Shown: one piece after another, positions 11,498 to 35,913 of the stretch
Layout of the letters: the number at the start of each line of letters is the position of its first letter
Numbering within the stretch: the first letter of the stretch is position 1
Virus record (IMG/VR): IMGVR_UViG_3300033513_000026
Coordinates: 1-39,832 of that record
Source: a virus
Taxonomy: Duplodnaviria > Caudoviricetes
DNA: 39,832 nucleotides
Direction: 5' to 3' (one strand)
Program-made: the position numbers and the translations under genes
The notes under the pieces: generated by a model
What the model was told of the DNA's origin: nothing
The model's database searches: none
What the model saw: the letters and a program-made list of their open reading frames with translations, nothing else

Positions 11498-12583
11498 TTA
11501 CAGCTTCGCAGAACCGCTACGGATTTTGTAAATCCAGTTGTTGTTCAGGATCGTTCCAACGTGCCATGCCTTCCACGCGAGAGAAGCGGCTTCGTTGAAA
11601 GCATCCATCACACCAGCAGAACCCAAAGGTTTGTAGATGATTTCTACAGCCGGAGGATTCTTCGGATTATACATTTCGTAGGAGTTGGTAGCGTGCATGT
11701 TTCCAAGCCCCACAGTACCGATTGCCTCCTGACCATATACAAACGAGTCGTACACGTCATGGGCCTTGGTAGATGCGCCACGCAGACCCACAGAAGACAC
11801 TTTTCCAGCGCCAGAGGCGATAGTGGATACCTGAGTAGACGACCAACGAACACCAGCTACCGCGCCAAATTCAAACGGCATGGTTTCGGTGTAACCCGCG
11901 TACTGCTCTACCGGGATGAAGCCAGTCAGTGCGCGAATATCTTCTTCTACGTCCACATGGCAGATACCGTAGTAGCTAGAACGGATCGGCTGTGTACCGA
12001 TGTTCGTAGAACCCATTCCGATAGGCGTAAATGTTCTCGCGGCCTGCTCGTTCAGGAAGTTGGTAGCTGCCTTAATATCCGTCAAAGAGATTGCCGCAGA
12101 GATGGTAGAAACGCTAGTACCACCACCTACCGCACCAGTCGAGTAACGGACGTTTGTGGCTCCCTGGTACGCGGTGAACATCAGCGAGTTCAGAGATTCA
12201 CCCGCGTTCGCTCCCAAAGTATCAAGCAGTTTGGCTGCTTTGGTGTTGACGTTGAAAAGGTCTACTTCCTCCGTCAAGAGAATAGCATTACCCTTTTTCA
12301 ACACCTGAGCGGTAACAGCCGACAGAGTGGGCGTTACGAAGTTGCGCCCGAAGAACGCGCCCTGCGAACCGGCCAATTCAGTCAGGGTAGTTGTAGCAGC
12401 GGCGAGGTTGTTGATACGCTCCCACTTTACGCTCGCCGAACCACCGGACTTTTGCAGGCTACCAGCAAGAGTTCCGTTAAAATACGGCAGCTTTTTACGA
12501 GCCGCCGACAGCAGACCTTTCATGAGTACGTAGTTAACTGGTTGGGTTAAATACGTACTCGTATTTGTGATCGTTTGTGCCAT
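11498..12583 (-). CDS. Major capsid protein (N4-gp56 family-like)
   Basis: 361 aa; 'SVKWERINNL', 'YYGICHVDVEEDIRALTGFIPVEQYA..EFGAVAGVRW' and 'AWKAWH..ILNNNW'; AAGGAG RBS and a downstream terminator. Confidence 0.85.
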   Translation of the reverse strand: MAQTITNTSTYLTQPVNYVLMKGLLSAARKKLPYFNGTLAGSLQKSGGSASVKWERINNLAAATTTLTELAGSQGAFFGRNFVTPTLSAVTAQVLKKGNAILLTEEVDLFNVNTKAAKLLDTLGANAGESLNSLMFTAYQGATNVRYSTGAVGGGTSVSTISAAISLTDIKAATNFLNEQAARTFTPIGMGSTNIGTQPIRSSYYGICHVDVEEDIRALTGFIPVEQYAGYTETMPFEFGAVAGVRWSSTQVSTIASGAGKVSSVGLRGASTKAHDVYDSFVYGQEAIGTVGLGNMHATNSYEMYNPKNPPAVEIIYKPLGSAGVMDAFNEAASLAWKAWHVGTILNNNWIYKIRSGSAKL

Positions 12584-13311: not shown

Positions 13312-13512
13312 TTACTTTCTTTCCTTAAAGGGGTTGATAATTTGTAATGCTCGATCAAATCCTTGCTGGATTAGCATATTAGAACACACTAATCTGTAGT
13401 TATCAACAGCAGGATCATATTGGGGTACTATTGGACGTGATTTTTCCAAAGCATCAAGCAACATTCTGAATTCAGGTTGTTCATGCAGGTTTTGGAGAAT
13501 TTGCTTGTTCAT
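13312..13512 (-). CDS. Small hypothetical protein between portal and scaffold
   Basis: ORF MNKQILQNLHEQPEF...; position typical of podophage head modules. Confidence 0.5.
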   Translation of the reverse strand: MNKQILQNLHEQPEFRMLLDALEKSRPIVPQYDPAVDNYRLVCSNMLIQQGFDRALQIINPFKERK

Positions 13513-15487
13513 TACCGGCGTCCTTAAAAGTTGATTCAATCTCGTTTTTGAGTTCGTCTATTAGCTTCTGGACGTTCTGTTCTGTCCTGTCTGTTGCCTG
13601 ATGGTGTTTTTGAGCAATGGAAAGGATGTTTTTAATGTGAGACTCCTTGATCTTCGCCATTTTAGCTGTAAAGTCCAACATCATTTTCTTTTCCTTGACC
13701 GCAGTTTGGGCCTTCTCCTGTTCCAGTTCCTTCGCAAGTTTTTGAACGGTCATAGCCATTTGATTCAGTTTAGCCTGAACATCTGGAGAAATATCTCCTT
13801 GCTTAAGGAATCTCTCTCCCCCTTTAACCCCGGCATCCATGAATACTTGCTTGATTATCTCCATGGGCTCTAGAAGGGGAGCGAATAACGGATTCTTAGA
13901 GATAGCGTCAGCGGTAGCTAAAAACTGTTGCTGACGCCTCATTTCACCCAATACACCCTTAGAGCCTACTACTTCAAAGTGTACGGTATCGGGTAACTCT
14001 GCTCCTGTTACCCTCAAGAAGTCGGGAGAGTCTAATTCCGGGTTGTAGTAGTTATACGAAAAATTCTTCTTGGTCTTGTTCATGTAATGCTGCATATACA
14101 AGAACGTCCTAAGAGCATCATCCAACTTGATAGCGAACCCGAACGGTCCCGCTTCTGAGTCTGCTTGCTTGGTAAGAACTTCCGTCCTTGTGGCCCTGTC
14201 TCCTACCTCTACTCCCGGCCTTCCAAGAGATTCTTTCATGGACGAAACCATGTACTGAAGACCGGCAAGAGTAGATGCAGGATCGCCTACATCCATTGTC
14301 TTGTAGTTTGCAGAACCCTTTGTAGAAGTCTTTGCACCCGGAGCGATAGTAGGGCCGCCATTCAGAACAAAATCAGGGTCGTTCCCGTCATACACGATAG
14401 GCGGACGGGTTTTTAACTGGGCACCGTTTACAAACTCATTCGCCAGAATAGAAGAGATTTTTTGTACCGGGCTTTGCTTGATGAGAGGAGACATGAAGTA
14501 CGGGTCTCGAACGTCCATCTTTTCGTAACCCTTGAAGATGATGGGAGGGTATGGAGTTTCGATTGCATCTATGTAAACCATCTTCCCGTTAGCCATGATA
14601 ACGTGGTAATTCGGGAAAAACATATCATCATCCGAAGGCTCCATTCCATCAGAGCTTTTCTTGATTACTACGTCGCCCCAATACTTGATTATTTCGAGAT
14701 CATAGGTCTTGTTTTCCTTCTGCTCGTTTTCCCTCTTGGGGATTTTTTTCAGTGCTTTGGGAATCCACCCTTCGCCTTTTGCCATTTCAAGGAATTTATG
14801 CCGTGGCATGTATTCCCGAATGAACATTGAGCCGTTATAGAACATATTCGACCCCACCAAAGAAGGGGAGGGGTCGGGCCAACAGTTCCACATCGAATGC
14901 GGAACCCAAACCGGGGAGCATATTTCTTTAGGCTTTACGCCATCGAAATACATATCCATGTAATCGCGCTTCACTTCCGCCACGAAAGCGCCATGATGAA
15001 GGCCTTCTTTAATTGACAGTTCTACTCTCTCGTAGAATCCGAAGTCTCTATGCTGTTGAGTCATTACAGCGCGGAGACGACCGTCTACCATGTCCTGATA
15101 TTTCTTATCTGTCTTTTCTGCTTCTCCGGTTATTGGGTTCAGTTCGGTAGGAATTTCTACATGCGCTTCGAACCAGCTTCGGCTTTCAGGAAAAACCACT
15201 CGCTTAAGGTCGGTTGTCATAATATCTGACGCCCTACCGAGTTCCCCTAGTTCAAACGTCGCCAACCATGTCTTTTCCGACTCCTCTGTGTTGTAGGAAT
15301 CCATTGGGTCTAGAACTACTTGGCGGTCTACTTCCTTCCATTTCGCTTCATGAGAGCGCCTGTAGTCGGAGTTCTTCCGCTTCTCTAATTCTGCCTTTAG
15401 AGACTGTTCAATCTTCTTGTAATCCTTGTCCGTAATCTTACGGGCTTTAACTTCTTTCTCTTCGTTTTCTGCCATGATTAACCCCAA
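13481..15487 (-). CDS. Portal protein
   Basis: 668 aa directly after TerL; 'PIIFKGYE..PYFMSPL', 'RATRTEV' and a C-terminal coiled-coil barrel as in P22/T7-like portals. Confidence 0.85.
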   Translation of the reverse strand: MGLIMAENEEKEVKARKITDKDYKKIEQSLKAELEKRKNSDYRRSHEAKWKEVDRQVVLDPMDSYNTEESEKTWLATFELGELGRASDIMTTDLKRVVFPESRSWFEAHVEIPTELNPITGEAEKTDKKYQDMVDGRLRAVMTQQHRDFGFYERVELSIKEGLHHGAFVAEVKRDYMDMYFDGVKPKEICSPVWVPHSMWNCWPDPSPSLVGSNMFYNGSMFIREYMPRHKFLEMAKGEGWIPKALKKIPKRENEQKENKTYDLEIIKYWGDVVIKKSSDGMEPSDDDMFFPNYHVIMANGKMVYIDAIETPYPPIIFKGYEKMDVRDPYFMSPLIKQSPVQKISSILANEFVNGAQLKTRPPIVYDGNDPDFVLNGGPTIAPGAKTSTKGSANYKTMDVGDPASTLAGLQYMVSSMKESLGRPGVEVGDRATRTEVLTKQADSEAGPFGFAIKLDDALRTFLYMQHYMNKTKKNFSYNYYNPELDSPDFLRVTGAELPDTVHFEVVGSKGVLGEMRRQQQFLATADAISKNPLFAPLLEPMEIIKQVFMDAGVKGGERFLKQGDISPDVQAKLNQMAMTVQKLAKELEQEKAQTAVKEKKMMLDFTAKMAKIKESHIKNILSIAQKHHQATDRTEQNVQKLIDELKNEIESTFKDAGNEQANSPKPA

Positions 15488-17772
15488 TTCGTGTGACGCT
15501 GGTAGCTTACTTGTTTACGAGGTGCAACCGTCATAGTGCGGGCATGACGAAGCATCATGATCGCGTATCGAACGGCTGAAATAACGTCATCGTTCATCTT
15601 TACGAGCTTGCTTATCCTTGCACCATTGGATTCTAATATAGCTCGGTGATACATTCGCTTTTCTTCCATGAAATACTTGCAGGTTTTGAAGACTTTAAAT
15701 CTTCCTGTCTGCATTCTTTCGAGCATTTCCATCAAAGATGCTTCTACCGAATTCCCGCCTTCCCCTTCTTTCTGTCCCGGAGAGGGGGGGTTTGTAGCTT
15801 TCCATGGAAGCATGTTAAGTCCAGCATCTAGATATTGCTGTCGTAACTGAATACCAGTCCCTTTTTCTGTATTCAACCCGTCATGCGGCCACGTAACCGG
15901 AACCCATTCGCCCCATGCATTGATAGATTGGGCGTGTACCACCGGAAGGGCGCGAGTCTCCCGATAATCATTCACAAGATAAACGCAGTCTGATTCCCTA
16001 TCCCATGCGATTTTACCAGCGCCAAATGGGTGATCCCAACCAAAGTCAATCCCTGTAATCTGCGGCCAGTGTCTAGGTATATCGAACGGGTCTATCAATA
16101 TGTCATCGTCTGGAACGTCAAACACTAGGCCCGCTCCCATTAATGGGGAACCTTTAGACCGCATTTCTCTTTCATGCGCCGGAAAGGCTTTTAAACGTTG
16201 CTGTTTGACTTCATCCGTCATGTGGGGGGCATCGTCCCATCCTGCTTGAATGATTGCCTGACCATAAGACAAATTGTTCATAAACCCCGAAACTACTTCA
16301 GTCATGCCTTCTTCGGGGGTTTCTGTGATGTAGAGAATGGAACCAGGCATTGCAAGGCCCATACGTATAAACTGGCTCCAAATCTCAGGCGGGGGTTCTT
16401 CGTCCAACCATCCACCATGAGCACGAATGCCCATGAACTTCTTGAATCCCTGCTCATAGGCTCGTATGTAGACCTTCGACCATCCACCAGTTACGTGTTT
16501 AACTAGGGCGGAATCTATCGCGTTAGGGACCCCTGCCTTTCTGTGCGTCTTTCCGATGCAGTCTATAGGAATCGTTCCAGTCCCCAATTCCTTGTCACTC
16601 ATTGGGTTTCCGAAGAGTTCTTTCTGGACAATATCCCTAGCCGTCTCATTTGTGTTAGATCCAATCATAAACTCGACAGGGTGTAAATACCTTGTTCCCT
16701 CCCACCAATCGGGGTATCTTCCAGTTAGATGAATGGCGGTCTCCATCGCTCCGCTAAAAGTATTGTGGTGAACCAATCCACCAGCAATATAGTTGTGTCT
16801 GTCTTCTACCTCCATATCGTATAGAGTGTGTACGCCAACAGAATAGACTGTTATAATGTTGTTTCCGTCAATAGTTAAAGGAGATAACAATGCCCGCAAA
16901 GAAGATTGTTGACCTTGAGTTGTTTCGTGAACTGTTTTCTCAGGATTTGCAAAATCATAAGATTGCTCAACTTCTTGGCGTTTCTGAACGATGGGTTGAG
17001 AGGTATGCTCGACGCTTCGGCTATAAAAAGACGCGTACGGGGCCGAAATCCGGCGACCGACATACGAACTGGAAAGGGGGGCGAAAACTCGTTGGAGGAT
17101 ATTGGTACATTTATTCACCAGACCATCCAAACTGTACCAAATCAAAGTACGTCCTCGAACACCGCTTGGCAATGGAGAAAAAACTTGGACGCCTTCTTGA
17201 TCGTAAAGAAGTTGTCCACCATAAAGACGGAAATAGCCAAAACAACGATCCTTCAAACCTCGAAGTGTTCCGAACAAACGGCGAGCACCTCTCAGAGCAT
17301 TTTTTAAATAATCCTGCTCAGAGGCAGCGTATCCGGGAAGGAATGGCAAAAGTTGACCTAAAGGGACGTAAGCGCCGCCAGCGGTCAAAATCATATGACC
17401 TTTCGGGCACTCCACCCAGCGGCCATCTGACAGAACAATCCTAAAACATTCCTCTGGTGGCTTGCGTACCCACGCAACAACTTTTCGTGGTTCTTTGTTT
17501 GGGTACGTCAATACATTGCATTCTCTTCCCCATACCTCACTAAGACGCTTTTCTCCCCCGTCAGTTTCTATCTTGACGGAAATAGAGTTGCACTTGCCAA
17601 TCTGATTTCCACCGAGTAGTAGACGCTGAGATGCCGGTAGATTTGTTCCTTTGCCTTTTGCGTTGTGGAATTCTTTCTGCTTTGGATAGGGGGTGTAATA
17701 CTCAAGACGGTGAGTATTCTTGTACCTCTCTATATCTGAGAGTGCTTTTACGATGTCTGAAATGTCAACCAT
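15478..17772 (-). CDS. terL: Terminase large subunit, intein-containing (764 aa precursor, ~487 aa spliced)
   Basis: Walker A GGNQIGK|T split by the intein, Walker B 'WLDEEPP', coupling motif 'ITETPEEG', nuclease 'GIDFGWDHP' and 'DDVISAVRYA'. Confidence 0.95.
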   Translation of the reverse strand: MVDISDIVKALSDIERYKNTHRLEYYTPYPKQKEFHNAKGKGTNLPASQRLLLGGNQIGKCNSISVKIETDGGEKRLSEVWGRECNVLTYPNKEPRKVVAWVRKPPEECFRIVLSDGRWVECPKGHMILTAGGAYVPLGQLLPFLPGYAASEQDYLKNALRGARRLFGTLRGLKDRCFGYFRLYGGQLLYDQEGVQVFSPLPSGVRGRTLIWYSLDGLVNKCTNILQRVFAPLSSSYVGRRISAPYASFYSRSVEHTSQPIVQKRQEVEQSYDFANPEKTVHETTQGQQSSLRALLSPLTIDGNNIITVYSVGVHTLYDMEVEDRHNYIAGGLVHHNTFSGAMETAIHLTGRYPDWWEGTRYLHPVEFMIGSNTNETARDIVQKELFGNPMSDKELGTGTIPIDCIGKTHRKAGVPNAIDSALVKHVTGGWSKVYIRAYEQGFKKFMGIRAHGGWLDEEPPPEIWSQFIRMGLAMPGSILYITETPEEGMTEVVSGFMNNLSYGQAIIQAGWDDAPHMTDEVKQQRLKAFPAHEREMRSKGSPLMGAGLVFDVPDDDILIDPFDIPRHWPQITGIDFGWDHPFGAGKIAWDRESDCVYLVNDYRETRALPVVHAQSINAWGEWVPVTWPHDGLNTEKGTGIQLRQQYLDAGLNMLPWKATNPPSPGQKEGEGGNSVEASLMEMLERMQTGRFKVFKTCKYFMEEKRMYHRAILESNGARISKLVKMNDDVISAVRYAIMMLRHARTMTVAPRKQVSYQRHTNWG
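16849..16883 (+). promoter_or_regulatory. Extended -10 sigma70 promoter and RBS for the antisense HNH gene
   Basis: TG-T-TATAAT at 16849-16857 and AAGGAG at 16878-16883, 6 nt before the ATG at 16890. Confidence 0.7.
16890..17444 (+). CDS. HNH homing endonuclease (N-terminal HTH + HNH_3), antisense within the TerL intein
   Basis: HTH 'KIAQLLGVSERWVERY', 'HTNWKGG', and 'YVLEHRLAMEKKLGR..EVVHHKDGNSQNNDPSNLEVF'; strong RBS. Confidence 0.92.
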   Translation: MPAKKIVDLELFRELFSQDLQNHKIAQLLGVSERWVERYARRFGYKKTRTGPKSGDRHTNWKGGRKLVGGYWYIYSPDHPNCTKSKYVLEHRLAMEKKLGRLLDRKEVVHHKDGNSQNNDPSNLEVFRTNGEHLSEHFLNNPAQRQRIREGMAKVDLKGRKRRQRSKSYDLSGTPPSGHLTEQS

Positions 17773-18007
17773 TCATCAACTCTTCAACTACTCGTTTTGC
17801 CTCTTGTGGGTTGTCTCGACGCAAACATGCGATAGGAGACAGCGATTCCGTTTCGATTGAAAATACATCTATAGGAGCCTCAAACGGGCTTGATTTTGTC
17901 TCTGGATCGTAAGACATAACCACCAACTTACCGCCCATTTGCCATGTGGTGTAGTAATGACCCTCTATTAGAGACTTGTACGCCTTAACGCATTTGCGAA
18001 CTTCCAT
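17765..18007 (-). CDS. Hypothetical protein
   Basis: 80 aa ORF overlapping both neighbours in the operon. Confidence 0.55.
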   Translation of the reverse strand: MEVRKCVKAYKSLIEGHYYTTWQMGGKLVVMSYDPETKSSPFEAPIDVFSIETESLSPIACLRRDNPQEAKRVVEELMNG

Positions 18008-18608
18008 CCCACTCTTCCTTTACCCAGCCAAATGAAAAATCATGCGGCTTGGGGTGACCGTGGAAACAACAAATAGCCGCTTTTAGTGGCATTCCAGTAG
18101 TCGCATGGGCCTTGTATGACACAATCTTGTAGGGAAAAAGGTCTTGCAGCCTCTTGGCGTGTTTTACCTGCTTCTCTATGTAGATTTGATCCCCACCTGA
18201 GATATGAGGACACCCATCTTTTTCGTAATTGTCGGTAATTTCATGTCCGAACCCACCTTTCCAAATCATCATCCCAGATCCATATCCATTGGGACGGTAA
18301 AAATCCCTCAGAATGGCAAATTTGCCGTTGTACTTGTCAATGAAATTGATGTTATCAACAATCAAGGTATCAAGGTCGAAGAAAACAACTTTCCCCTCGG
18401 TAAATTCCTTGAAGAGATATAGTTTTGAATACCATCCTTCACCTTTAATCGGTCTGGTTTCGCACTCTATACCTGTAGGATCGTCGGTAAAGCACACAAA
18501 TTTATGAGGGACGGTCAAGTACCACTCTACTGCCCTGTAAAGCTTGTTGACGTACTCCGCCCCTCTTCCGCAGTAGTTGTTAACTTGAACGCAACAGATT
18601 GTCAACAT
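17985..18608 (-). CDS. Glycosyltransferase, GT-A fold (GT8-like)
   Basis: 'YVNKLY..V..HKFVCFTDD', 'GWYSKLYLF', DxD in 'FFDLDTLI', 'GGDQ' and 'CFHGHPKPH'. Confidence 0.8.
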   Translation of the reverse strand: MLTICCVQVNNYCGRGAEYVNKLYRAVEWYLTVPHKFVCFTDDPTGIECETRPIKGEGWYSKLYLFKEFTEGKVVFFDLDTLIVDNINFIDKYNGKFAILRDFYRPNGYGSGMMIWKGGFGHEITDNYEKDGCPHISGGDQIYIEKQVKHAKRLQDLFPYKIVSYKAHATTGMPLKAAICCFHGHPKPHDFSFGWVKEEWDGSSQMR

Positions 18609-19042
18609 GTAAATACCGCCGTATGGGGAACGTGTTTAGTGTACATTTCTACATTTGAAAAAATTGAGGTTAGAGTATCCCACGGTGTAGTGTCTTTGGC
18701 CTGACTTGCATCGTGCATTACGATTACCTTAGCATGAGGTTTCAACAGGGCGAGTTTTGCCATTCGTCCGGGTGAGTGCTCTTCGTTATCCAGAAAGATC
18801 AATCCGTATTGTCCTTCGAGTTTGTAGTTCGCCCAATCCACGATATGAATGTCTGCAATTTCTCGATAGCGATTAGCCCAGTCAGGATCGGAAGCATGAA
18901 CAGTGAGCTTACTACCACGGTCACGACAAATTGCAGCAAGTATAGGAGTAGAATAATCGCCGCAACCAAGCTCAAGAATATCTCCGGGAGTTTCCAAAGC
19001 AGCTTTGACAAGTGGTTCAATATGAGTAGCATAGGCATCCAT
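18602..19042 (-). CDS. Class I SAM-dependent methyltransferase-like protein
   Basis: 'ILELGCGDYST', 'LIFLD' and 'IVMHD'. Confidence 0.7.
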   Translation of the reverse strand: MDAYATHIEPLVKAALETPGDILELGCGDYSTPILAAICRDRGSKLTVHASDPDWANRYREIADIHIVDWANYKLEGQYGLIFLDNEEHSPGRMAKLALLKPHAKVIVMHDASQAKDTTPWDTLTSIFSNVEMYTKHVPHTAVFTC

Positions 19043-19651
19043 TCAGTTTTCAATCCTCCAAAGCGCTATAGCCTTATCGCAATAATACGGGTGTGGGTTT
19101 CCTTCGTTCAACACTAGAAGCGGTTTCGGGAAGTTAAAAGGATCGTCCATGAGATTGAGCGGCCTCCATCCTCCAGTTTCAATGTCTTCGTTATGATGAA
19201 GAGTAAATGTAGTTGTAAGCAGATATTTTGAGTTTGAGGCGCAGATATTCGCCAGCGCATTCATTGCGTCCTGATATGAAAGATGGACTAGGCAATCTCT
19301 ACAGATTACCAGGTCAACCTGTGGAAGCTTGTCTTTAGTAACGTCCAGAATTTTAAATGACACATCATTAAAATCTGCGGTCAGATAATAAATTTCATCT
19401 ATCAACTCGGGAACAATGTCTGCTCCAATATATTGTATCCCAGTTAGATCAACATGCCGCATCCAGTTGAAGTCACCGCAAGGAATATCAAGAATAGACT
19501 TGATGTTAAGGTTCTTGATAATCTCCGGCAGAGCTTCCCTGAGCCTCTTGGTTTCTTCAAGACTCGATCCGGAGCCGGAAACGGATTCTCCATTGCCCCA
19601 AGCTTTCTTGTGATAGATTTCAGTGAAGATGTTTTTTATCTCTTCTGCCAC
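19043..19651 (-). CDS. Class I SAM-dependent methyltransferase
   Basis: 'ESVSGSGS', 'SILDIPCGDFNWM', 'YIGADIV' and 'DLVICRDCLVHL'. Confidence 0.85.
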   Translation of the reverse strand: MAEEIKNIFTEIYHKKAWGNGESVSGSGSSLEETKRLREALPEIIKNLNIKSILDIPCGDFNWMRHVDLTGIQYIGADIVPELIDEIYYLTADFNDVSFKILDVTKDKLPQVDLVICRDCLVHLSYQDAMNALANICASNSKYLLTTTFTLHHNEDIETGGWRPLNLMDDPFNFPKPLLVLNEGNPHPYYCDKAIALWRIEN

Positions 19652-20613
19652 GATTTCAAATCCCTATATACGGTTACGTTAGGATAAACATGGGACGGGC
19701 CTTCGGGAACATGCCAGTCTAGCTCGTCCACTACTTTATCAACTTCTAACTCGGTTTTCTTGTCTGGAATAACTATCTCGCATTTAGCCCCTATAGAGCC
19801 TGCGAAATGCATTACTGAGGTAGGAACACAGACAACCTTATCCAACACCGAAATAAGCGCCAGAACCCCCTCTATGTCGTTTCTGAGGTCTATATCCGGG
19901 CGCTCTACTTCCTCGGTTGTGTGGTCGTACTGCAACGAAATAGGTTTTTCGATTCCGAAAGATTCGGCAGAGATATAGCCATGCCTTCCCCTCCATGACA
20001 GCCCGACTCTTCCCCGGTATTTCTCGAACTCTTCAACTCTGCTTTTGAGTATTTTAATGAAGGGTCGGCGGGGAAAGTCTCCGGGTCGTCTCCTAAAAAG
20101 AGGGAGGAGGTCAGCAGCAGGTATAAAAGCAGTATTATCACCAAGTAGATCATCTCTCGCGTCGATGTATCTTTCTCTCGCATCTATGCCAAAGCTCCGT
20201 TTGATGATCTCTACTAACCTTCCGTCACAAGCATACGTGACTTTTTTACATCTTACCATTGCCTCGGGGATAAGAGAGGAAAACAACACCTCATCACCTA
20301 TCCCTTGTTCACCTATGATAATCAGACTTTCCGTGTAGTTCCCATCCCAAAACGGTATAGATTTAATCCCATACCGCATTGCTTCGGCCCACTCGTCTCT
20401 GAATTGCCATCCGTCCCACTCGGAATAATTCCCTTGAAGGATTCTAGCACAGCAGAGATTGTGCTTTACTCTCGGGTCTAAACGCTGGTAAACCTCAAAG
20501 TCGTTTTGCTCTCGAAGTTTCTTCTTGAAATGCTGAAGCGTTCGATCAACCTGCAATCTACTTGCGGTTGACGAACGCCTTAACATAAAAGCTACGTCAG
20601 AATAGAGGCTCAC
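19636..20613 (-). CDS. GT-B glycosyltransferase (GT9/heptosyltransferase-like)
   Basis: 'WDG...LIIIGEQGIGDEVLF', 'RVGLSWRG', 'ISLQY' and 'LDKVVCVPTSVMHFAGSIG'. Confidence 0.75.
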   Translation of the reverse strand: MSLYSDVAFMLRRSSTASRLQVDRTLQHFKKKLREQNDFEVYQRLDPRVKHNLCCARILQGNYSEWDGWQFRDEWAEAMRYGIKSIPFWDGNYTESLIIIGEQGIGDEVLFSSLIPEAMVRCKKVTYACDGRLVEIIKRSFGIDARERYIDARDDLLGDNTAFIPAADLLPLFRRRPGDFPRRPFIKILKSRVEEFEKYRGRVGLSWRGRHGYISAESFGIEKPISLQYDHTTEEVERPDIDLRNDIEGVLALISVLDKVVCVPTSVMHFAGSIGAKCEIVIPDKKTELEVDKVVDELDWHVPEGPSHVYPNVTVYRDLKSWQKR

Positions 20614-24154: not shown

Positions 24155-24253
24155 GATTTCACCACTTGAAGATTAGGGCTCTACGGAATAACGTGTAGAA
24201 TTCATCATAAAGGAATATACTCATAAATCGGATTAACGTGTGGAACTGACATT

Positions 24254-24886
24254 ATGATTGCTGCCCTTTTTGTAGAAACAGACGGCGCGTACTTCGGTAT
24301 TCCTGGTGTGGAGCCGTGGGACGAAGCGAAAGACGCTAGGCGTTACACTGGTCCGCTGCCGGTGGTGGCGCACCCCCCTTGCCAGCGCTGGGGGAAGTTC
24401 TGGGCTGGACAGCCGCTCTGGATAGCGCGTACCGGAGAAAGGAAGAAGAAAGGTGATGACGGCGGCTGTTTCGCGTCTGCCTTGGCATCGGTACGCGAGT
24501 TTGGTGGTGTGCTTGAACATCCGTGGGGAAGTCATGCGTGGCCGCACTTCGGGCTGACTGTTCCTCCGCGCTCCGGGGGATGGGTTAAGGCCGACGAGCA
24601 AGGGGGCTGGACATGCTGCGTTGAGCAAGGTCGATATGGTCACTACGCCAGAAAACCGACGCTTCTTTATGTGGTTGGGGCAGACCTTCCTGAACTTCGA
24701 TGGGGGAAAAGCGACCCTGTGTTTCCTCAATGGGCAATAGACAGATACGGGATTGAAAGATGCAAACGGGCTGGAGAATTGGCTTTCAAGGGCGGCGGTA
24801 AGGACAATTCCCATCGTATCGCTACGCCGCCGGAGTTCAAGGAGTTGTTGCTGTCGATAGCAGCAAGGGCGAAAGGCGGGAACTGA
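24254..24886 (+). CDS. Divergent short DNA cytosine-C5 methyltransferase-like protein
   Basis: 'IAALFV' (motif I-like), 'VVAHPPCQRW' (catalytic PC), 'VLEHP' (ENV-like), 'YGHYARKPT' and 'IATPPEF'. Confidence 0.6.
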   Translation: MIAALFVETDGAYFGIPGVEPWDEAKDARRYTGPLPVVAHPPCQRWGKFWAGQPLWIARTGERKKKGDDGGCFASALASVREFGGVLEHPWGSHAWPHFGLTVPPRSGGWVKADEQGGWTCCVEQGRYGHYARKPTLLYVVGADLPELRWGKSDPVFPQWAIDRYGIERCKRAGELAFKGGGKDNSHRIATPPEFKELLLSIAARAKGGN

Positions 24887-24889
24887 CCG

Positions 24890-25279
24890 ATGACCGACAT
24901 CCTCGACCTTCCAGGCTGGACCGTGCTCTCCAAGTCTCAATCCGGCGGTGAATACCTGATTGAGGCCGAGTACACCGTCCAGCCCACGGCATGCCCCAAG
25001 TGCGGAGTTATCGACACCCCGTACAAGCATGGCGTCAAGCCCATCAAGTACCGCGACAGCCCCATCAGGGGCGATTCGGTGAACATTCTGGCTCAGGTCC
25101 AGCGGTACAGGTGCCAATCCTGCCTTGGGGTGTACGAGCCGTCCGAGCTTTATGTCACCCGCATGGGCGTTGTCCTTGAGGACGAACCCATGACAAACAG
25201 GACTTTGATGTGCGCCCACTGCAAAGAGCGTTTCCACACGGAAGGCGTTAAGCATGGTCACTCACCTTCCACACCTTAA
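24890..25279 (+). mobile_element. Truncated ISL3-family transposase N-terminus (zf-ISL3) with a non-transposase tail
   Basis: 'DILDLPGWTV..CPKCG..YKHG..YRDSPIRG..V..QRYRCQSC'; no DDE domain follows. Confidence 0.7.
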
Positions 25280-26244: not shown

Positions 26245-26323
26245 GATTGATCCTCAAGGTTGGGGGAAAAATTAGGGAAGGGGTATATGTTAACACTCAA
26301 GAATGCTTTTGGGGGTTCCCATA

Positions 26324-26335
26324 GTAAGTATTTAC
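26324..26335. promoter_or_regulatory. SlmA-binding-sequence-like palindrome 1
   Basis: GTAAGTATTTAC (followed by TAAC) compared with the SBS consensus GTGAGTACTCAC. Confidence 0.45.
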
Positions 26336-26427
26336 TAACAAAGGATGCTTATCCACAGGGCTATGATCTGTGGATAACTATACCACTCTCGATCACTCTC
26401 TGCCTATTATTTGCACTGGTCATTAGT

Positions 26428-26440
26428 AATCAATGAGTTA
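26428..26440 (+). promoter_or_regulatory. IHF binding site
   Basis: AATCAATGAGTTA is an exact match to WATCAANNNNTTR. Confidence 0.65.
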
Positions 26441-26445
26441 CACTA

Positions 26446-26473
26446 AGATAGCATAATGGTCATTATGTTAAAT
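26446..26473 (+). other. dif-like XerC/XerD recombination site
   Basis: AGATAGCATAA-TGGTCA-TTATGTTAAAT versus E. coli dif GGTGCGCATAA-TGTATA-TTATGTTAAAT: XerD arm 11/11, inner XerC arm GCATAA conserved. Confidence 0.88.
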
Positions 26474-26599
26474 TCCAGCATCCATGCGGGTTACAGAGCA
26501 TGTGTGTAAGTCTGTGCATAACTTATCATGGTGTCACATGTGGATAAGTGAGAGTTATACACATTCGTCTAGCTTGTGGATATGTGGAGAAGTTAGTGA

Positions 26600-26611
26600 G
26601 TGAGTGCTTAC
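26600..26611. promoter_or_regulatory. SlmA-binding-sequence-like palindrome 2
   Basis: GTGAGTGCTTAC preceded by GTTAGTGA. Confidence 0.5.
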
Positions 26612-27161
26612 GTACGAGAGTTCTGGAGGAATGAGGACGGACTCGACTAGCATCCACTCTCTTCCCTTCATTACCCATTCATCACTACTACTTATCCAAT
26701 CTACTCGACCTATAAGTTTCGCTTATGCTTAGACTGTTGAGTCTAAATAGATATTGACGTTTGAGTAATGTACGAATTAAGGACGTAGGATCGTGGCGTC
26801 TCCCCTTAATACGATCCGGTCTAGGTTTAGGTCGTGTCAATCTTTTGTCGATTGAAATAGTGATGACTGACCTACAGTGCGATTATGTTTAGAGAGGGTC
26901 GGCTTAGTGCTGGCTGTGCCCTCTACCTGGCTTAAGAAGGTTTAAGCTTTGTTCAGGTCGCTAGTTTATTACTTCCGGCTTGCGAAGCCTCTCGGTGTGT
27001 TTTGGTGCGTTTGTGGGCCTATTGTAACTTACTCGTCCCACTCATTCGAGTCCCAATCGTGATCTTTCATTTCTGATTACCGCTTGATGTGCTATCCAAC
27101 CTCCACGGCACTACCACCTCTATTTGCATGGATGCAGGACGAAGATTGAATAGCTGGTTAG

Positions 27162-27170
27162 ATTATACCA
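27162..27170 (-). promoter_or_regulatory. Candidate late-operon promoter (extended -10)
   Basis: Minus strand TGGTATAAT right after the nin-region terminator, facing the packaging genes. Confidence 0.45.
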
Positions 27171-27199
27171 AAAAAATCCCCGGCAAGCTGCACCGGGGC
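27170..27199 (-). terminator. Rho-independent terminator ending the replication/nin transcript
   Basis: Minus strand CCCCGG-tgcagcttg-CCGGGG-ATTTTTTT. Confidence 0.7.
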
Positions 27200-27238
27200 T
27201 AGTTCCGGAATTTCACCGGATCGGGGGAGAGAGACGGC

Positions 27239-29517: not shown

Positions 29518-30516
29518 TCATTTAAGTGCGGAGCGGAATAGCTCCGCTGATTTATCGGCTCTTACTCTGTTTCCCGGATGACGTTTGTAAATAAACTCTT
29601 CAAATGCCATTTTTTTGAAAAACGCCGGCTGGTTTCCGTATGCCGCAAGGTCAACATAAAAATCATGATGCTCGCTCCCCCAGCATTCAATATCTCGCAT
29701 GACATAAGGAAGCAATTTTCGGTTACGCAGGAATTCAACCCGTTTCACCGTCTCGGTTAGCGGCATTGCAGGATTTACATACACATAGAATTTTGCGCCC
29801 CACGGCTTAATCCATTGCAGCAATTTAAGCTGTCTTTCTATAATGCGCCTATAGCCCCAATTATCGAACGCGAAAATATATTCGCCCATATAGTTTAGTT
29901 TAAATAAAGCAGCAGAATTTTCCTCGGTTATCAACCGTATATCCAATCCCTGATTAAACTGACACTTGATTTTCCTCTCCGCCAGCCATTCAAGAATTTC
30001 AACGTGGTTTGGAAGTTGAAGAAAATTGTTATCCATGAACTTCACTTTTTTGAACTTGCGGATTATGTTTTCCAAGTCTGCTTCTACTTGGTGAATTTTC
30101 CCCTCTTTTTGCGGGACTACGCACCAATGGCATTTGCGATCACACCCGCGACTAATGAACCCATAGGCCGTATCGTTGTCTGAATAAATTGAGTAATCCA
30201 ACTCCTGTTCGTCTATCTCATCTGGCAACGTTGCGTCCAGACTAATACCTGTGCCACCGAATAAGCAAAGTCCTTTCTGGCTGTAAAGGTCGAAATCAAC
30301 GCAATCCATTGTCCCTCCGAAAATAGCTGACAAATAAACTGCATCGTATCCAGCCGTCGAAATAGTTGTGCGCGTTCGCTTGTCCGGGTAATAGGATATT
30401 CCTAATCTTTTCAACTCCACTTCATCCCCCATTGATTTGTGGTATGAAGATATTTTCATCAGCGCAAGGTTCGGGATTGTTGAATCTACGTCGATCAATA
30501 GAATGCGCAAAGCCAT
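29518..30516 (-). CDS. Radical SAM-family protein
   Basis: 'LIDVDSTIPNLALMKIS' N-terminus, CxxxCxxC in 'SRGCDRKCHWCVVPQKEG', 'MDNNFL' and 'FNQGLDIRL'. Confidence 0.85.
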   Translation of the reverse strand: MALRILLIDVDSTIPNLALMKISSYHKSMGDEVELKRLGISYYPDKRTRTTISTAGYDAVYLSAIFGGTMDCVDFDLYSQKGLCLFGGTGISLDATLPDEIDEQELDYSIYSDNDTAYGFISRGCDRKCHWCVVPQKEGKIHQVEADLENIIRKFKKVKFMDNNFLQLPNHVEILEWLAERKIKCQFNQGLDIRLITEENSAALFKLNYMGEYIFAFDNWGYRRIIERQLKLLQWIKPWGAKFYVYVNPAMPLTETVKRVEFLRNRKLLPYVMRDIECWGSEHHDFYVDLAAYGNQPAFFKKMAFEEFIYKRHPGNRVRADKSAELFRSALK

Positions 30517-31504: not shown

Positions 31505-32176
31505 CTATTTACTCGAAAAAGTAGACTTGCTCAAAATCTCTTTCATTTTGGCTATTTTCTCTTTTGCTTCGTTCGTTGGCTTGTAAGCAAGAGCTAACTT
31601 TTTCTCCCCTGCCGCCTCAAGAAGTGGCACGGCATTCTCCGGCGGAAGTAAACTAATCGCGTGTTCCGGCTTCAATCTTCCAAGCCTGATTGCTTCTGCT
31701 AGGCATGCTTCCCTTGATTCTTTGTCTTGACCGAGTGAAGGTAACCATTTAACAAGCTCGCCAAGACGTTTTGCGGTATCTACAAGGCGCGTATAGGCAT
31801 CTTTGAAGGCCATCCTAGCAGCTACTTGGTCGCCTTCGTCTAAGAGCGGTTGCGCAACTCTTAGAGCTTTTGCCATTTCCTCAGTCATTACTACGCTGGT
31901 GTATTCGTCTCTAGGGATCATCGCCCAGGCTTCCTCTACAGACGGACGGCCATCAGGAACGATCTTATCCAGAATGTCGAGAATATCGGCAGGACGCGGA
32001 GAAAATTTGCTGAGTCTGATGTGTTCGTCAAGTGCTGAACGAACATGCTCAATGTCGAATCTGTTTAGGGCAGACCACCACAGTCTAAGCGCATCAGGAG
32101 ACAAAGGGGATTGATCGTAGGTTTCCCGAGTAACTTTCATGAGCGCGGCGAATTCAGTTTTTTGTCTATCCAACAT
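31505..32176 (-). CDS. Replication-associated protein (helicase-loader/inhibitor-like N-terminus, DUF6475-like)
   Basis: Downstream of the initiator; 'LWWSAL..FDIEHVRSAL..H..SKFSPRPADI..DGRPSVEEAW..AARMAFKDAY'. Confidence 0.6.
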   Translation of the reverse strand: MLDRQKTEFAALMKVTRETYDQSPLSPDALRLWWSALNRFDIEHVRSALDEHIRLSKFSPRPADILDILDKIVPDGRPSVEEAWAMIPRDEYTSVVMTEEMAKALRVAQPLLDEGDQVAARMAFKDAYTRLVDTAKRLGELVKWLPSLGQDKESREACLAEAIRLGRLKPEHAISLLPPENAVPLLEAAGEKKLALAYKPTNEAKEKIAKMKEILSKSTFSSK

Positions 32177-32945
32177 GCTTAGATTCCCCCTCGATTATGT
32201 TATCCGTTCCCAAGAAGTCCCGAAGCTCTGCATCAAAATCTCTCCCGGATGATTTGTTAGATTTCAGCCAGTCTGCATTGAATCCTTGCCAGCTTCGCTT
32301 GCAGCAAATCTTTACGGCTTCGTCTACAGAAATTCCCGCCTTGCCAGCTTCTCTAATCAAATCATATAGTGCTGTCCGCGTCAGTGGAGCGCGCTTTGCT
32401 TTTCTGATTGTCAACCAGTCTTTGGCGTGTTGTTCTGCTACACCGAGTTCAAGCAAAAGTTTGAACGGCGATTTTGTTGCCGACTTGTCGGCAGAAGGCG
32501 AATCAGTAATCAGTGAATCAGTGTTAAGGGAATCAGGAATCACTGAATCAGGAATCAGAGAATCAGCAGGAGTCAAACCGTTTTTTAACGGTGCTATAAC
32601 CGTTACTTGGCAACCTTCTGTATATTCTGGATATTCTGAATCCTTCTCTGTATGGTGAGGATTCTGATGTTCTTTGAACTTCACCACTTGAATTAGCTTC
32701 AATCCATTGACTTCATACCTATGGATTAACTTGAACGAAACAAGCACGGTTAGATAACCGTTAATGTCAAAATTATCACGGTACGGGAACAACTCTGCTT
32801 TAATGCGCAACGGACGATCTTCAAGAATCCCGGCCTTGTCTGCTAAAGTCCAAAGTCCGGCGAACAGGAGAGAAACGAACGGATCAGCAGTTCCTAGGTC
32901 TTCGTTCTTGAAAAATCCTGGCTTGATGTTTCTAGCTCGCGCCAT
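32166..32945 (-). CDS. Phage replication initiator (lambda O-like / replisome organiser)
   Basis: 'MARARNIKPGFFKNEDL..LLFAGLWTLADKAG.LEDRP.RIKAELFPY', internal repeats, and C-terminal 'W..IRKAKRAPLT..WQGFNADW'. Confidence 0.8.
   Translation of the reverse strand: MARARNIKPGFFKNEDLGTADPFVSLLFAGLWTLADKAGILEDRPLRIKAELFPYRDNFDINGYLTVLVSFKLIHRYEVNGLKLIQVVKFKEHQNPHHTEKDSEYPEYTEGCQVTVIAPLKNGLTPADSLIPDSVIPDSLNTDSLITDSPSADKSATKSPFKLLLELGVAEQHAKDWLTIRKAKRAPLTRTALYDLIREAGKAGISVDEAVKICCKRSWQGFNADWLKSNKSSGRDFDAELRDFLGTDNIIEGESKHVG
32478..32604. repeat. Iteron-like repeats inside the initiator gene (putative phage ori)
   Basis: GAATCAG at 15-bp period (32500, 32515, 32530, 32545, 32560), palindrome TGCCGAC-TT-GTCGGCA (32478-93) and AACGGT-N6-ACCGTT (32587-604). 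Confidence 0.55.
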
Positions 32946-32958
32946 ATTTGCTTTCAAT

Positions 32959-33058
32959 AAAAAAGCCCTGAGAGAGACTCCAACAGAAATTCTGTTTTGG
33001 CGGCGCATCAGGTGGATGCCGGAGTCTCTTTCAGGGCTTACCTTAATCATCCCGCCAA
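32959..33058 (-). ncRNA. Multibranch structured RNA / attenuator upstream of the replication initiator
   Basis: 19-bp closing stem (32963-81/33021-39, 18/19 paired) enclosing two hairpins, followed by a U-run on the minus strand. Confidence 0.55.
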
Positions 33059-33172
33059 GGATGCAAAGTAATTGTATCATGCACGGTTAGCACATTCAAG
33101 GCCGGGCGTCCCTGTTTAACAATGCCTAGCGTGCGTAGTATCCGCTAGACTATCCCATGTGCAATAGGTGCA

Positions 33173-33252: not shown

Positions 33253-33783
33253 TCACTTGCTCTTACCCTTCCATTCTTCGTCTTTCTCTAGGGTTTTCTT
33301 GAAATACCATCCAGCCGCGTGATGGTAAATAACGATCCCTTCGGGATTCATAAAGCCAGGCGCTGCTTTGCTCCCGTTTTCTTTGAGATTATGCAGTGCA
33401 TCCGCAATTGCAGACTGAACAAATAGTCCTTCATAAAGCACAGGGACAATTCCGCAGCACTCAGGGCGAGACTCTGACCATTTCTTAGTATTGAACAGAG
33501 AAAACTTCTTTTCTGTTTGTGAATAATTACGCTGGATTCCAGAGCCCCACCATTCTCCGAAATGTCTACCAACACCCAAAGTCATCAATTCGTCTTTATG
33601 ATCGAATGCCCATTTCGCAAATCCGAAGTTGTCGTCTTCCGGCGTAATCCAGCGCGTGCGGGAGCCTACAAAAAACTCTCCATTTTCACCAATACAGATT
33701 TGCGCATTTGTGCCATCAATTTTTTCCGTAATGGTACATTCGCGTGATAACCGATAAATTTTCCCGAACGATTCAAATTCCAT
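33253..33783 (-). CDS. RNA ligase-family nucleotidyltransferase (Rnl2-like adenylation domain)
   Basis: Motif I 'TEKIDGTNA', 'GSRTR', 'FGEWWG', 'FSLF', 'EGIVI' and 'FKK'. Confidence 0.8.
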   Translation of the reverse strand: MEFESFGKIYRLSRECTITEKIDGTNAQICIGENGEFFVGSRTRWITPEDDNFGFAKWAFDHKDELMTLGVGRHFGEWWGSGIQRNYSQTEKKFSLFNTKKWSESRPECCGIVPVLYEGLFVQSAIADALHNLKENGSKAAPGFMNPEGIVIYHHAAGWYFKKTLEKDEEWKGKSK

Positions 33784-34480: not shown

Positions 34481-34711
34481 ATGGATAAAGTAAACCTGTT
34501 CGAGCAACAAGCGCGTATGGATGCCTCAACATCGAAAGCGATAAATGAGATGTTTGAGAGAATCAAGAGCCAGCAGAAAAGGAATAAGCTGTTCGGCTTC
34601 AAGGATTCCACATTTGAATGCCAGTGTGAAAATTCGGGTGAGTGTGATTCATGCGTAGCAAGTCGCTCTGACGAGCATTTTGATCGTAAACGTGATGGAG
34701 AGATGAAATGA
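34481..34711 (+). CDS. Hypothetical protein
   Basis: GGAG RBS before MDKVNLF; C-terminal Cys cluster. Confidence 0.5.
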   Translation: MDKVNLFEQQARMDASTSKAINEMFERIKSQQKRNKLFGFKDSTFECQCENSGECDSCVASRSDEHFDRKRDGEMK

Positions 34712-35913
34712 CAACTAAAGGAGAGAATATGATTAAGGCTTACAAGGGGTTTGACAAGAACCTGCAATGCCGTTGTTTCCAATTCGAGATTGGCGGCGAA
34801 TACACACATGATGGGGAGGTTGAAGCTTGTGCAAGCGGGTTCCATTCGTGCGAATACCCGCTTGACGTGTTCGGATACTATGCGCCAGCCGAGAGTCGAT
34901 TCTGCGAGGTCAAGGCGTCGGGCGAAATGTCACGCCACGAATACGACAGCAAGGTGGCATCGCAACACCTGAAAGTGGTTGCGGAAATCGGGCTGGCTGG
35001 TTTGATTAAAGCCGCGATTGATTACACGTTTTCGCGCACCACGAAAGACAATGGTTCTAGCAGCACTGGGAATCGAGGCGCGGCAAGCAGCACTGGGTAT
35101 CGAGGCGCGGCAAGCAGCACTGGGGATTATGGCGCGGCAAGCAGCACTGGGAATCAAGGCGCGGCAAGCAGCACTGGGGATTATGGCGCGGCAAGCAGCA
35201 CTGGGGATTATGGCGCGGCAAGCAGCACTGGGTATCGAGGCGCGGCAAGCAGCACTGGGAATCGAGGCGCGGCAAGCAGCACTGGGTATCGAGGCGCGGC
35301 AAGCAGCACTGGGAATCAAGGCGCGGCAAGCAGCACTGGGGATTATGGCGCGGCAAGCAGCACTGGGGATTATGGCGCGGCAAGCAGCACTGGGAATCGA
35401 GGCGCGGCAAGCAGCACTGGGGATTATGGCGCGGCAAGCAGCACTGGGTATCGAGGCGCGGCAAGCAGCACTGGGGATTATGGCGCGGCGTCCAGCACCG
35501 GATACCAAGGCGCGGCGTCCAGCACCGGAAACTGTGGCGCGGCGTCCAGCACCGGAAACTATGGCGCGGCGTCCAGCACCGGAAACTATGGCGCGGCGTC
35601 CAGCACCGGAAACTGTGGCGCGGCGTCCAGCACCGGAAACTATGGCGCGGCGTCCAGCACCGGAAACTGTGGCGCGGCGTCCAGCACCGGAAACTATGGC
35701 GCGGCGTCCAGCACCGGAAAGCATTCTGTCGCCCTAGCGTGCGGCTATGAAGGCCGCGCAATGGCCGGAGAAACAGGAGCTATTATACTGGTGCATCGCA
35801 ATGACAACGGCGAAATCGTCCATATCCGCGCAAGCAAGGTAGGCGAGAACGGTATCAAGCCTAATGTGTGGTACGTTTTGGATGCTGATGGTAACTTTCA
35901 GGAGGTTCAATAA
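34708..35913 (+). CDS. DUF7666-like protein with GAASSTGxx solenoid repeats
   Basis: 'KAYKGFDKNLQCR.FQFEIG..C.SGFHSCEYPLDVFGYY' N-terminus, 25 repeats, and C-terminal 'IKPNVWYVLD'. Confidence 0.8.
   Translation: MTTKGENMIKAYKGFDKNLQCRCFQFEIGGEYTHDGEVEACASGFHSCEYPLDVFGYYAPAESRFCEVKASGEMSRHEYDSKVASQHLKVVAEIGLAGLIKAAIDYTFSRTTKDNGSSSTGNRGAASSTGYRGAASSTGDYGAASSTGNQGAASSTGDYGAASSTGDYGAASSTGYRGAASSTGNRGAASSTGYRGAASSTGNQGAASSTGDYGAASSTGDYGAASSTGNRGAASSTGDYGAASSTGYRGAASSTGDYGAASSTGYQGAASSTGNCGAASSTGNYGAASSTGNYGAASSTGNCGAASSTGNYGAASSTGNCGAASSTGNYGAASSTGKHSVALACGYEGRAMAGETGAIILVHRNDNGEIVHIRASKVGENGIKPNVWYVLDADGNFQEVQ
35059..35724 (+). repeat. 27-bp coding tandem repeat, ~25 units
   Basis: Units encode GAASSTG plus two variable residues; two synonymous codon blocks. 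Confidence 0.95.

Follow-up and report, generated by a model that had tools for sequence, protein, structure and literature searches.

What does a tailed phage gain from a gene-free stretch of DNA in which look-alikes of host DnaA boxes, an IHF site, a dif site and SlmA-binding sites (SBS) are nested around one another? The locus, here called the hub, belongs to IMG/VR record IMGVR_UViG_3300033513_000026, a complete virus whose 39,832 bp are the window analyzed; its IMG/VR class, with end repeats, reflects a circular assembly and not mapped ends. A preliminary description had seen in the hub an element that could maintain an integrase-less genome as an episome, or titrate DnaA and block division. 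Our preferred reading, to which we give somewhat less than even odds (about 0.45), is that the hub is a terminal-repeat cassette where the XerCD recombinase of the host would join the genome ends, with accessory sites that can be swapped.

Motifs of the hub and their gene context

The phage encodes a podovirus-like head module (Table 1), and genes for NinG, an O-like initiator, a P-like loader, Sak4 and SSB were also recognized. A gamma- or betaproteobacterial host is probable, since the replication and SSB proteins match those of Pseudomonas, Acinetobacter, Ralstonia and Bordetella phages. The two sequencing runs that contain the phage come from wetland metagenomes, a possible source. No tyrosine integrase could be identified in this complete genome, no repressor was recognized, and no partition genes were recognized among the 65 ORFs scanned. 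Direct repeats inside the O-like gene look, from their sequence, likely to be the phage's own origin. The hub sits in a 994 bp gap free of genes (26245-27238), between NinG and a 121 aa ORF that is putatively terS-like, by position only; the ORF had no PHROG or Pfam match, its three homologues are in unnamed viral clusters, and homologues abut the dif site in relatives.

Table 1. Features of the hub, the adjoining terminus-like motif and selected genes, in window coordinates.
Feature	Position	Strand	Remarks
Capsid gene	11498-12583		head module
Portal gene	13481-15487		head module
Large terminase gene (terL)	15478-17772	-	intein-like insertion at about residues 73-337
Small-terminase-like ORF, 121 aa	25276-25641	-	candidate; named from position
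Terminus-like motif	26267-26320	+	A-tract 26267-26271, G-rich run ending 26285, G/C palindrome 26311-26320
SlmA-site-like palindrome, left	26324-26335		one mismatch, at a preferred position
Exact DnaA box pair, inverted	26349-26357 (+), 26369-26377 (-)		11 bp apart
Exact IHF consensus	26428-26440	+	5 bp from the XerC arm
dif-like XerC/XerD site	26446-26473	+	XerC-like arm 26446-26456, spacer 26457-26462, exact XerD arm 26463-26473
Six DnaA boxes	26501-26591		26501 (-, two mismatches), 26513 (-), 26539 (-, exact), 26555 (+), 26575 (-), 26583 (-)
SlmA-site-like palindrome, right	26600-26611		all preferred positions fit
P-like loader gene	31505-32176		neighbor of the O-like initiator
Lambda O-like initiator gene	32166-33080	-	internal direct repeats (iteron-like) at about 32500-32566

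Several features elsewhere in the genome are recorded here for their own sake. The insertion in TerL is of ~265 aa, is absent from relatives and gives a weak match to intein splicing. Just downstream of the terS-like gene is a GC-rich patch (24254-25279, +) with a 210 aa ORF and, on the opposite strand, a fragment of an ISL3 transposase zinc finger; contigs from a run on mine drainage share 98-99% identity with positions 24229-24867, which suggests a recent insertion. Glycosyltransferase and methyltransferase genes (17985-20613, -) lie between the terS-like gene and terL and possibly serve to modify the virion or the DNA; a similar block is present in MW202713. A 19 bp inverted repeat (32963-33039), whose arms are 95% complementary and separated by 39 bp, lies within the 5' portion of the O-like ORF and is possibly an operator or terminator. 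Among the early genes are a 401 aa ORF (34708-35913, +), which lies in a high-GC, strongly skewed patch and matches tail-fibre-like repeat families, and genes for a radical SAM protein and an RNA-ligase-family protein (29518-30516 and 33253-33783, both -). A Tlde1-domain protein (801-1205, -), encoded beside a holin-like gene, is probably a lysis enzyme. GATC is depleted genome-wide (115 vs 173 expected), which may reflect a GATC-cutting restriction system in the host.

The motifs of the hub all occur where the preliminary description had placed them, and in the same order (SBS, DnaA, IHF, dif, DnaA, SBS). Its count of three perfect boxes among the six on the right stands under the consensus TTWTNCACA, but only one of the six is an exact 9-mer. 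The dif-like site has two 11 bp arms, partly symmetric about a 6 bp spacer, in which the XerD arm matches at 11/11 positions and the inner XerC arm at 6/8, and the spacer differs from the chromosomal type of two metagenome-assembled genomes (MAGs) at 3/6 positions. Judged by the rule for a 12 bp palindrome (G, T, purine, A, G, pyrimidine in each half), the right SBS-like site conforms throughout and the left one fails at position 5 of one half; by the preferences given in PMC3020112, the left site breaks one strongly preferred position and the right fits all preferred ones. All three exact DnaA 9-mers of the genome, its sole exact IHF consensus and its sole exact XerD arm are within the hub.

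Could such a cluster have come together by chance in so long an intergenic region? Of 2000 dinucleotide-shuffled versions of the 994 bp gap, none reached its seven DnaA boxes with at most one mismatch (shuffle mean 0.3) and none contained the dif pattern. Two SBS-like sites had P = 0.0055, the IHF site alone P = 0.05 and KOPS P = 0.08; the motif definitions were picked with the claim known, so the SBS and IHF values are optimistic. The borderline IHF and KOPS values, and this choice of motifs after the claim, are what a chance assembly has in its favor, but the dif and DnaA results, and the retention of dif in half of the relatives (see below), make it scarcely conceivable. Over the whole genome, the richest 250 bp hold seven boxes, against a maximum of three in 200 shuffles.

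Other signals were sought as well. KOPS was rejected as a hub element, its single KOPS-like 8-mer belonging to the end motif and being not above chance, and the genome has two KOPS vs 3.8 expected. There were no matches to matS, and a promoter and terminator scan gave counts at chance level. Single-strand folding of 26286-26640 (z = -2.3) is explained by the inverted DnaA boxes. A BLASTn search with the intergenic region against cultured phages returned only matches of 23-26 bp to the dif core.

A stretch of 250 bp with eight DnaA boxes and one IHF site is what a DnaA-dependent, oriC-like origin might look like, and such an origin could keep an integrase-less genome as an episome, as had been proposed. 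That role is not supported and is very improbable: an AT-rich unwinding element is missing, with AT content reaching no more than 73% in 30 bp windows sampled every 20 bp, GATC is depleted, the only two short trio-like runs are outside the array with none beside the boxes, the phage has its own O-like initiator gene with repeats 6 kb away, and the DnaA array is absent from the fetched relatives.

The dif-like site in relatives and the predicted genome end

A capsid search gave 80 loci; 25 records were screened and 16 were fetched whole. Sites were scored by their matches to the XerD arm plus the inner XerC arm, and with a cut-off of 15 of 19, set after the scores had been seen, one dif-like site was found in 8/16 whole relatives, vs 0/16 with the reversed pattern. 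In the eight clear relatives the arms and their exact 6 bp spacing are kept, all spacers differ, and the orientation flips. The other eight are without a clear dif; in two of them (G010 and G015) a degenerate site occupies the corresponding position, and relative G011, without dif, retains the IHF site and end motif. An IHF-like site lies within about 45 bp of dif in six of the eight (exact in G012, G014 and G021), and an SBS-like pair lies beside dif in one (G003). No DnaA array was seen in the fetched relatives, and the exact DnaA-IHF-dif pattern, searched across IMG/VR, matched this phage only. The full nested layout is thus not a conserved unit; conservation applies to dif, usually with an IHF-like site, and not to the DnaA array.

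A further 160 loci (1.83 Mb) gave 12 dif-like matches vs three controls, and the five strongest of these were this phage, two known relatives and loci L406 and L030. Among GenBank phages with related terminases, 13/14 are without dif, phiM5 included; taken with the eight unclear relatives, this indicates that the dif site is dispensable.

A dif-like site on a complete genome without an integrase, and with an exact XerD arm, could be an attP for integration at the chromosomal dif of the host, as in the IMEX (CTXphi, VGJphi and gokushoviruses), and Xer-dependent integration is established for small phages (PMC5357621, PMC7062461). For this phage it is quite improbable. A tyrosine integrase is encoded 14-18 kb from dif in 5/6 complete dif-bearing relatives (G014 is without one), and MW202713, close kin of G007, also encodes an integrase; as the two occur together, dif is not an integrase substitute. 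The absence of an integrase from this genome, noted at the outset, holds, but the idea that the hub replaces one is not supported. Among 20 dif-bearing records of other lineages, 17 are less than 90% complete, and one of the three complete ones has an integrase. The hub spacer departs from the two-MAG chromosomal type at half of its positions, spacers vary freely in relatives, and the lack of a recognized repressor also speaks against integration. No dif-flanked prophage or other integrated copy was found among 185,579 GTDB genomes, in a scan that reaches close relatives only; its three matches are all MAG contigs, in which no dif-like site or host flank was recognized.

The preferred reading of the hub as an end-joining cassette starts from a motif that the earlier work overlooked and that is the anchor of the cassette. 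In this terminus-like motif (Table 1), the G/C palindrome starts 25 bp beyond the G-rich run, and the same layout is present in eight relatives (G003, G007, G008, G009, G010, G014, G015 and MW202713). In this phage and in 6/6 regex-positive records with the motif beside dif (G003, G007, G008, G009, G014 and MW202713), 40-160 bp separate the two, and dif, although its orientation flips, is always on the side facing away from terL; the regex was built after the data were seen and has eight off-target matches. In G012, G020 and G021 a similar arrangement of motif and dif was recognized by eye.

The boundary motif was compared by eye with phages of known or computed repeats. It has the layout found at the inner repeat boundary in T7 (placed from the length of the T7 terminal repeat), of RpY2 (repeat of about 237 bp, computed) and of phiM5 (357 bp, annotated); Ab22 matches loosely and Hena1 does not. 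By this analogy, the motif is predicted to mark where a short direct terminal repeat ends on its inner side, with the terminase cut near 26285. We infer that the repeat would reach about 190-350 bp into the hub, of which 190 bp would cover dif and 330 bp the whole hub. No contig of the sequencing runs extends over the hub. TerL is 48-49% identical to that of Vibrio VPp1-like phages, 41% to LUZ24-like and 40% to headful-packaging P22, and given this mixed kinship it does not settle the packaging mode; under P22-type packaging the hub might stay unduplicated.

The site could also serve a circle formed by other means, with XerCD resolving multimers as at cer, psi or loxP, IHF, DnaA or SlmA acting as accessory factors, and theta replication or an episomal carrier state as the setting. 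The non-chromosomal spacer, the phased IHF site, the lack of an integrase and the absence of integrated copies from the GTDB genomes agree with this, as does the need of cer and psi for about 180 bp of accessory sequence (PMC5357621). We nevertheless hold it to be unlikely, as it leaves unexplained both the fixed position of dif beside the terminus-like motif and the dif sites inside rV5-subfamily and T7-like repeats described below, and the phage has no recognized partition genes.

Occurrence in IMG/VR and cultured phages

Across IMG/VR, about 1300 stretches carry the dif pattern vs about 310 with the reversed pattern. Around 104 distinct dif sites, 19 exact IHF matches fall in 66 near positions vs 8 in 410 far ones, with a few offsets dominating, and an exact IHF site lies within about 45 bp of dif in 13/79 loci vs 2/80 controls. 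A terL gene is found within 3 kb of 29/79 dif loci (32 with PHROG calls) vs 10/80 control loci, an enrichment that is inflated, as 8/9 seed proteins came from test loci, many matches are of one family, and the control GC is 0.34 vs 0.45. These terL tests used only the 80 loci with flanks; L169, a duplicate of L168, was left out of the counts. The chromosomal-type spacer occurs at 0/32 terL-linked sites, which have 27 different spacers, vs 11/47 other sites, and its absence there fits recombination of each site with its own copy; binding without recombination would account for varied spacers just as well.

Parts of the hub layout recur outside the phage's own family. A succession of end motif, DnaA box, a second, DnaA-like box, IHF site and dif is also present near terL in L179, L220 and L489, which belong to a different terminase lineage. 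SBS-like pairs flank dif near terL in L494 and L496 (mutual kin) and in L499, which are three of six matches genome-wide, against two in controls; in a random sample, an SBS was near 5/120 viral dif sites vs 0/120 (P = 0.06). The slmA gene was present in 39/201 sampled Gammaproteobacteria, and also in a MAG (G046) that holds a contig of the phage family. Together with the recurrence of each type of site beside dif-like sites in other phages, the motif matches support the view that the hub sites resemble real targets of host proteins.

Two individual loci are of separate interest. The 155 kb contig of an unrelated large phage (G044) has, near its start (L493:184-400), three XerD arms clustered in about 130 bp, of which two are parts of full dif-like sites, with five DnaA boxes and an IHF site. 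Pseudomonas phage vB_PsaM_M1 (OP714164.2; L488:1496-1523) has an intergenic copy of 23 bp identical to the hub dif core, spacer included, with an SBS-like site 151 bp away.

Among cultured phages, 423 records match a chromosomal-type dif query, and two copies were present in 4 of the 60 listed. The site lies at 289 in Hena1, inside an annotated repeat (1-519), at 274 in Klebsiella phage DP, inside an annotated repeat (1-514), and at 129-156 in RpY2, inside its computed repeat; HdK5 has two copies, one at 169-198. Cultured phages of the rV5 subfamily bear dif within annotated terminal repeats. Both rV5-subfamily and T7-like phages are lytic. The first 700 bp of Hena1, DP, RpY2 and HdK5 have neither an exact IHF site nor a DnaA box nor an SBS, and since the phages with related terminases mostly are without dif, the accessory sites are optional and so is the core.

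The accessory sites raise the alternative that host proteins bind the hub and no recombination follows, the sites serving for end capping, help to the terminase, datA-like titration of DnaA, or a hold on division via SlmA. Eight DnaA boxes around one IHF site are datA-like in outline (PMC10380432), and T5-like phages keep eight DnaA boxes in the terminal repeat (10.1101/866236). The recurring SBS-like pairs in L494, L496, L499 and G003, a patchy pattern with which the scattered occurrence of slmA is consistent, point the same way, as does the relative that keeps its IHF site and end motif without dif. We find this alternative doubtful. The DnaA array is not retained in relatives, SBS near viral dif is rare by both counts given above, and the exact 6 bp arm spacing of all eight clear relatives is explained more simply by the geometry of recombination.

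Proposed end joining by host XerCD and comparison with known systems

In the preferred reading, joining of the genome ends, the terminase would cut near the G-rich run so that a dif-like site, directly repeated, is present near both ends of every virion DNA. XerC and XerD of the host would bind to both copies, with IHF as an accessory factor that bends the DNA next to the core. A crossover within the identical 6 bp spacers would then give a one-genome circle, or end-to-end concatemers. The circle could serve O/P theta replication and, in relatives, also their own integrase. As lineage-specific add-ons, the DnaA and SlmA-like sites would organize or shield the genome end. They might also sequester DnaA or hold division back while copies accumulate; the titration or division block proposed in the preliminary description is, on the motifs, a possible effect of these sites.

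What argues for end joining is the fixed place of dif beside the end motif, the dif sites in the repeats of cultured phages, the enrichment of IHF sites and terL, and the non-chromosomal spacers. Against it, XerD would have to be activated without FtsK, and IHF does not occur in the Xer review (PMC5357621), which counts against IHF-aided joining. The phage also encodes a Sak4-like annealing protein, which could circularize the DNA by homology.

The route by which phages with short blunt repeats reach circles or concatemers is only partly understood, and end joining, if true, would be a host-catalyzed route of phage circularization. A dif and IHF core recurring at the ends of tailed phages, to which DnaA and SlmA-like sites are optional additions, would extend both the uses of Xer and its accessory factors. 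Our literature search, outside which most subscription journals lay, turned up no report of dif or SBS sites at the ends or terminal repeats of tailed phages; the papers found describe only integration by small non-tailed phages as a use of Xer by phages (PMC5357621, PMC7062461). More tentatively, many unrelated tailed phages, lytic ones too, might carry such a modular landing pad in the terminal repeat, for FtsK-free end joining by XerCD with IHF, DnaA and SlmA as new Xer accessory factors, and with DnaA and SlmA sites that throttle host initiation and division without a phage protein; this phage would be the fullest version seen. The cultured rV5-like coliphages with dif in the terminal repeat make the idea testable at once, and SBS-like sites may help host prediction because slmA is patchy among bacteria.

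Several known systems share parts of this arrangement. Chromosomal dif, with XerCD and FtsK/KOPS, has the same exact XerD arm and 6 bp spacer length, with a partly matching XerC arm, but the hub spacer differs, there are no converging KOPS, and SBS-like sites flank the hub dif, whereas SBS are kept out of the terminus region in E. coli (PMC3116907). The E. coli loci datA, DARS and oriC likewise have DnaA boxes around one IHF site and oppositely oriented box pairs; the likeness is one of outline, and the hub has a Xer site in its middle and neither an unwinding element nor a GATC cluster. The iss region of T5, a non-coding part of the terminal repeat with about eight DnaA boxes of proposed function, also resembles the hub, but its boxes are paired 3 bp apart, its repeat is long and its injection has two steps (Davison, bioRxiv 10.1101/866236); this preprint mentions neither XerC nor SlmA.

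The IMEX attP sites of CTXphi, VGJphi, TLCphi and an enterogokushovirus are also phage-borne dif-like sites without a phage recombinase beside them, but those described so far are small, non-tailed and integrate at the host dif, whereas relatives of the hub phage keep an integrase, their spacers vary and no integrated copy was found. The sites cer (ColE1) and psi (pSC101) share with the hub a XerC/XerD core of 28-30 bp, a non-chromosomal spacer and adjacent host accessory sites (PMC5357621). They differ in that their accessory proteins are PepA, ArgR and ArcA, whereas the hub's sites are look-alikes of IHF, DnaA and SlmA sites, with those of IHF and DnaA occupying the XerC side, and in that the hub site is on a tailed phage, beside a predicted genome end.

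At loxP of P1, recombination by Cre between the terminally redundant copies circularizes the injected DNA and resolves multimers. P1 has its own recombinase for this, whereas the hub would borrow XerCD from the host. The hub lacks the features of a chromosomal dif and of oriC given above and appears, from its sequence, to resemble a plasmid Xer site or P1 loxP most.
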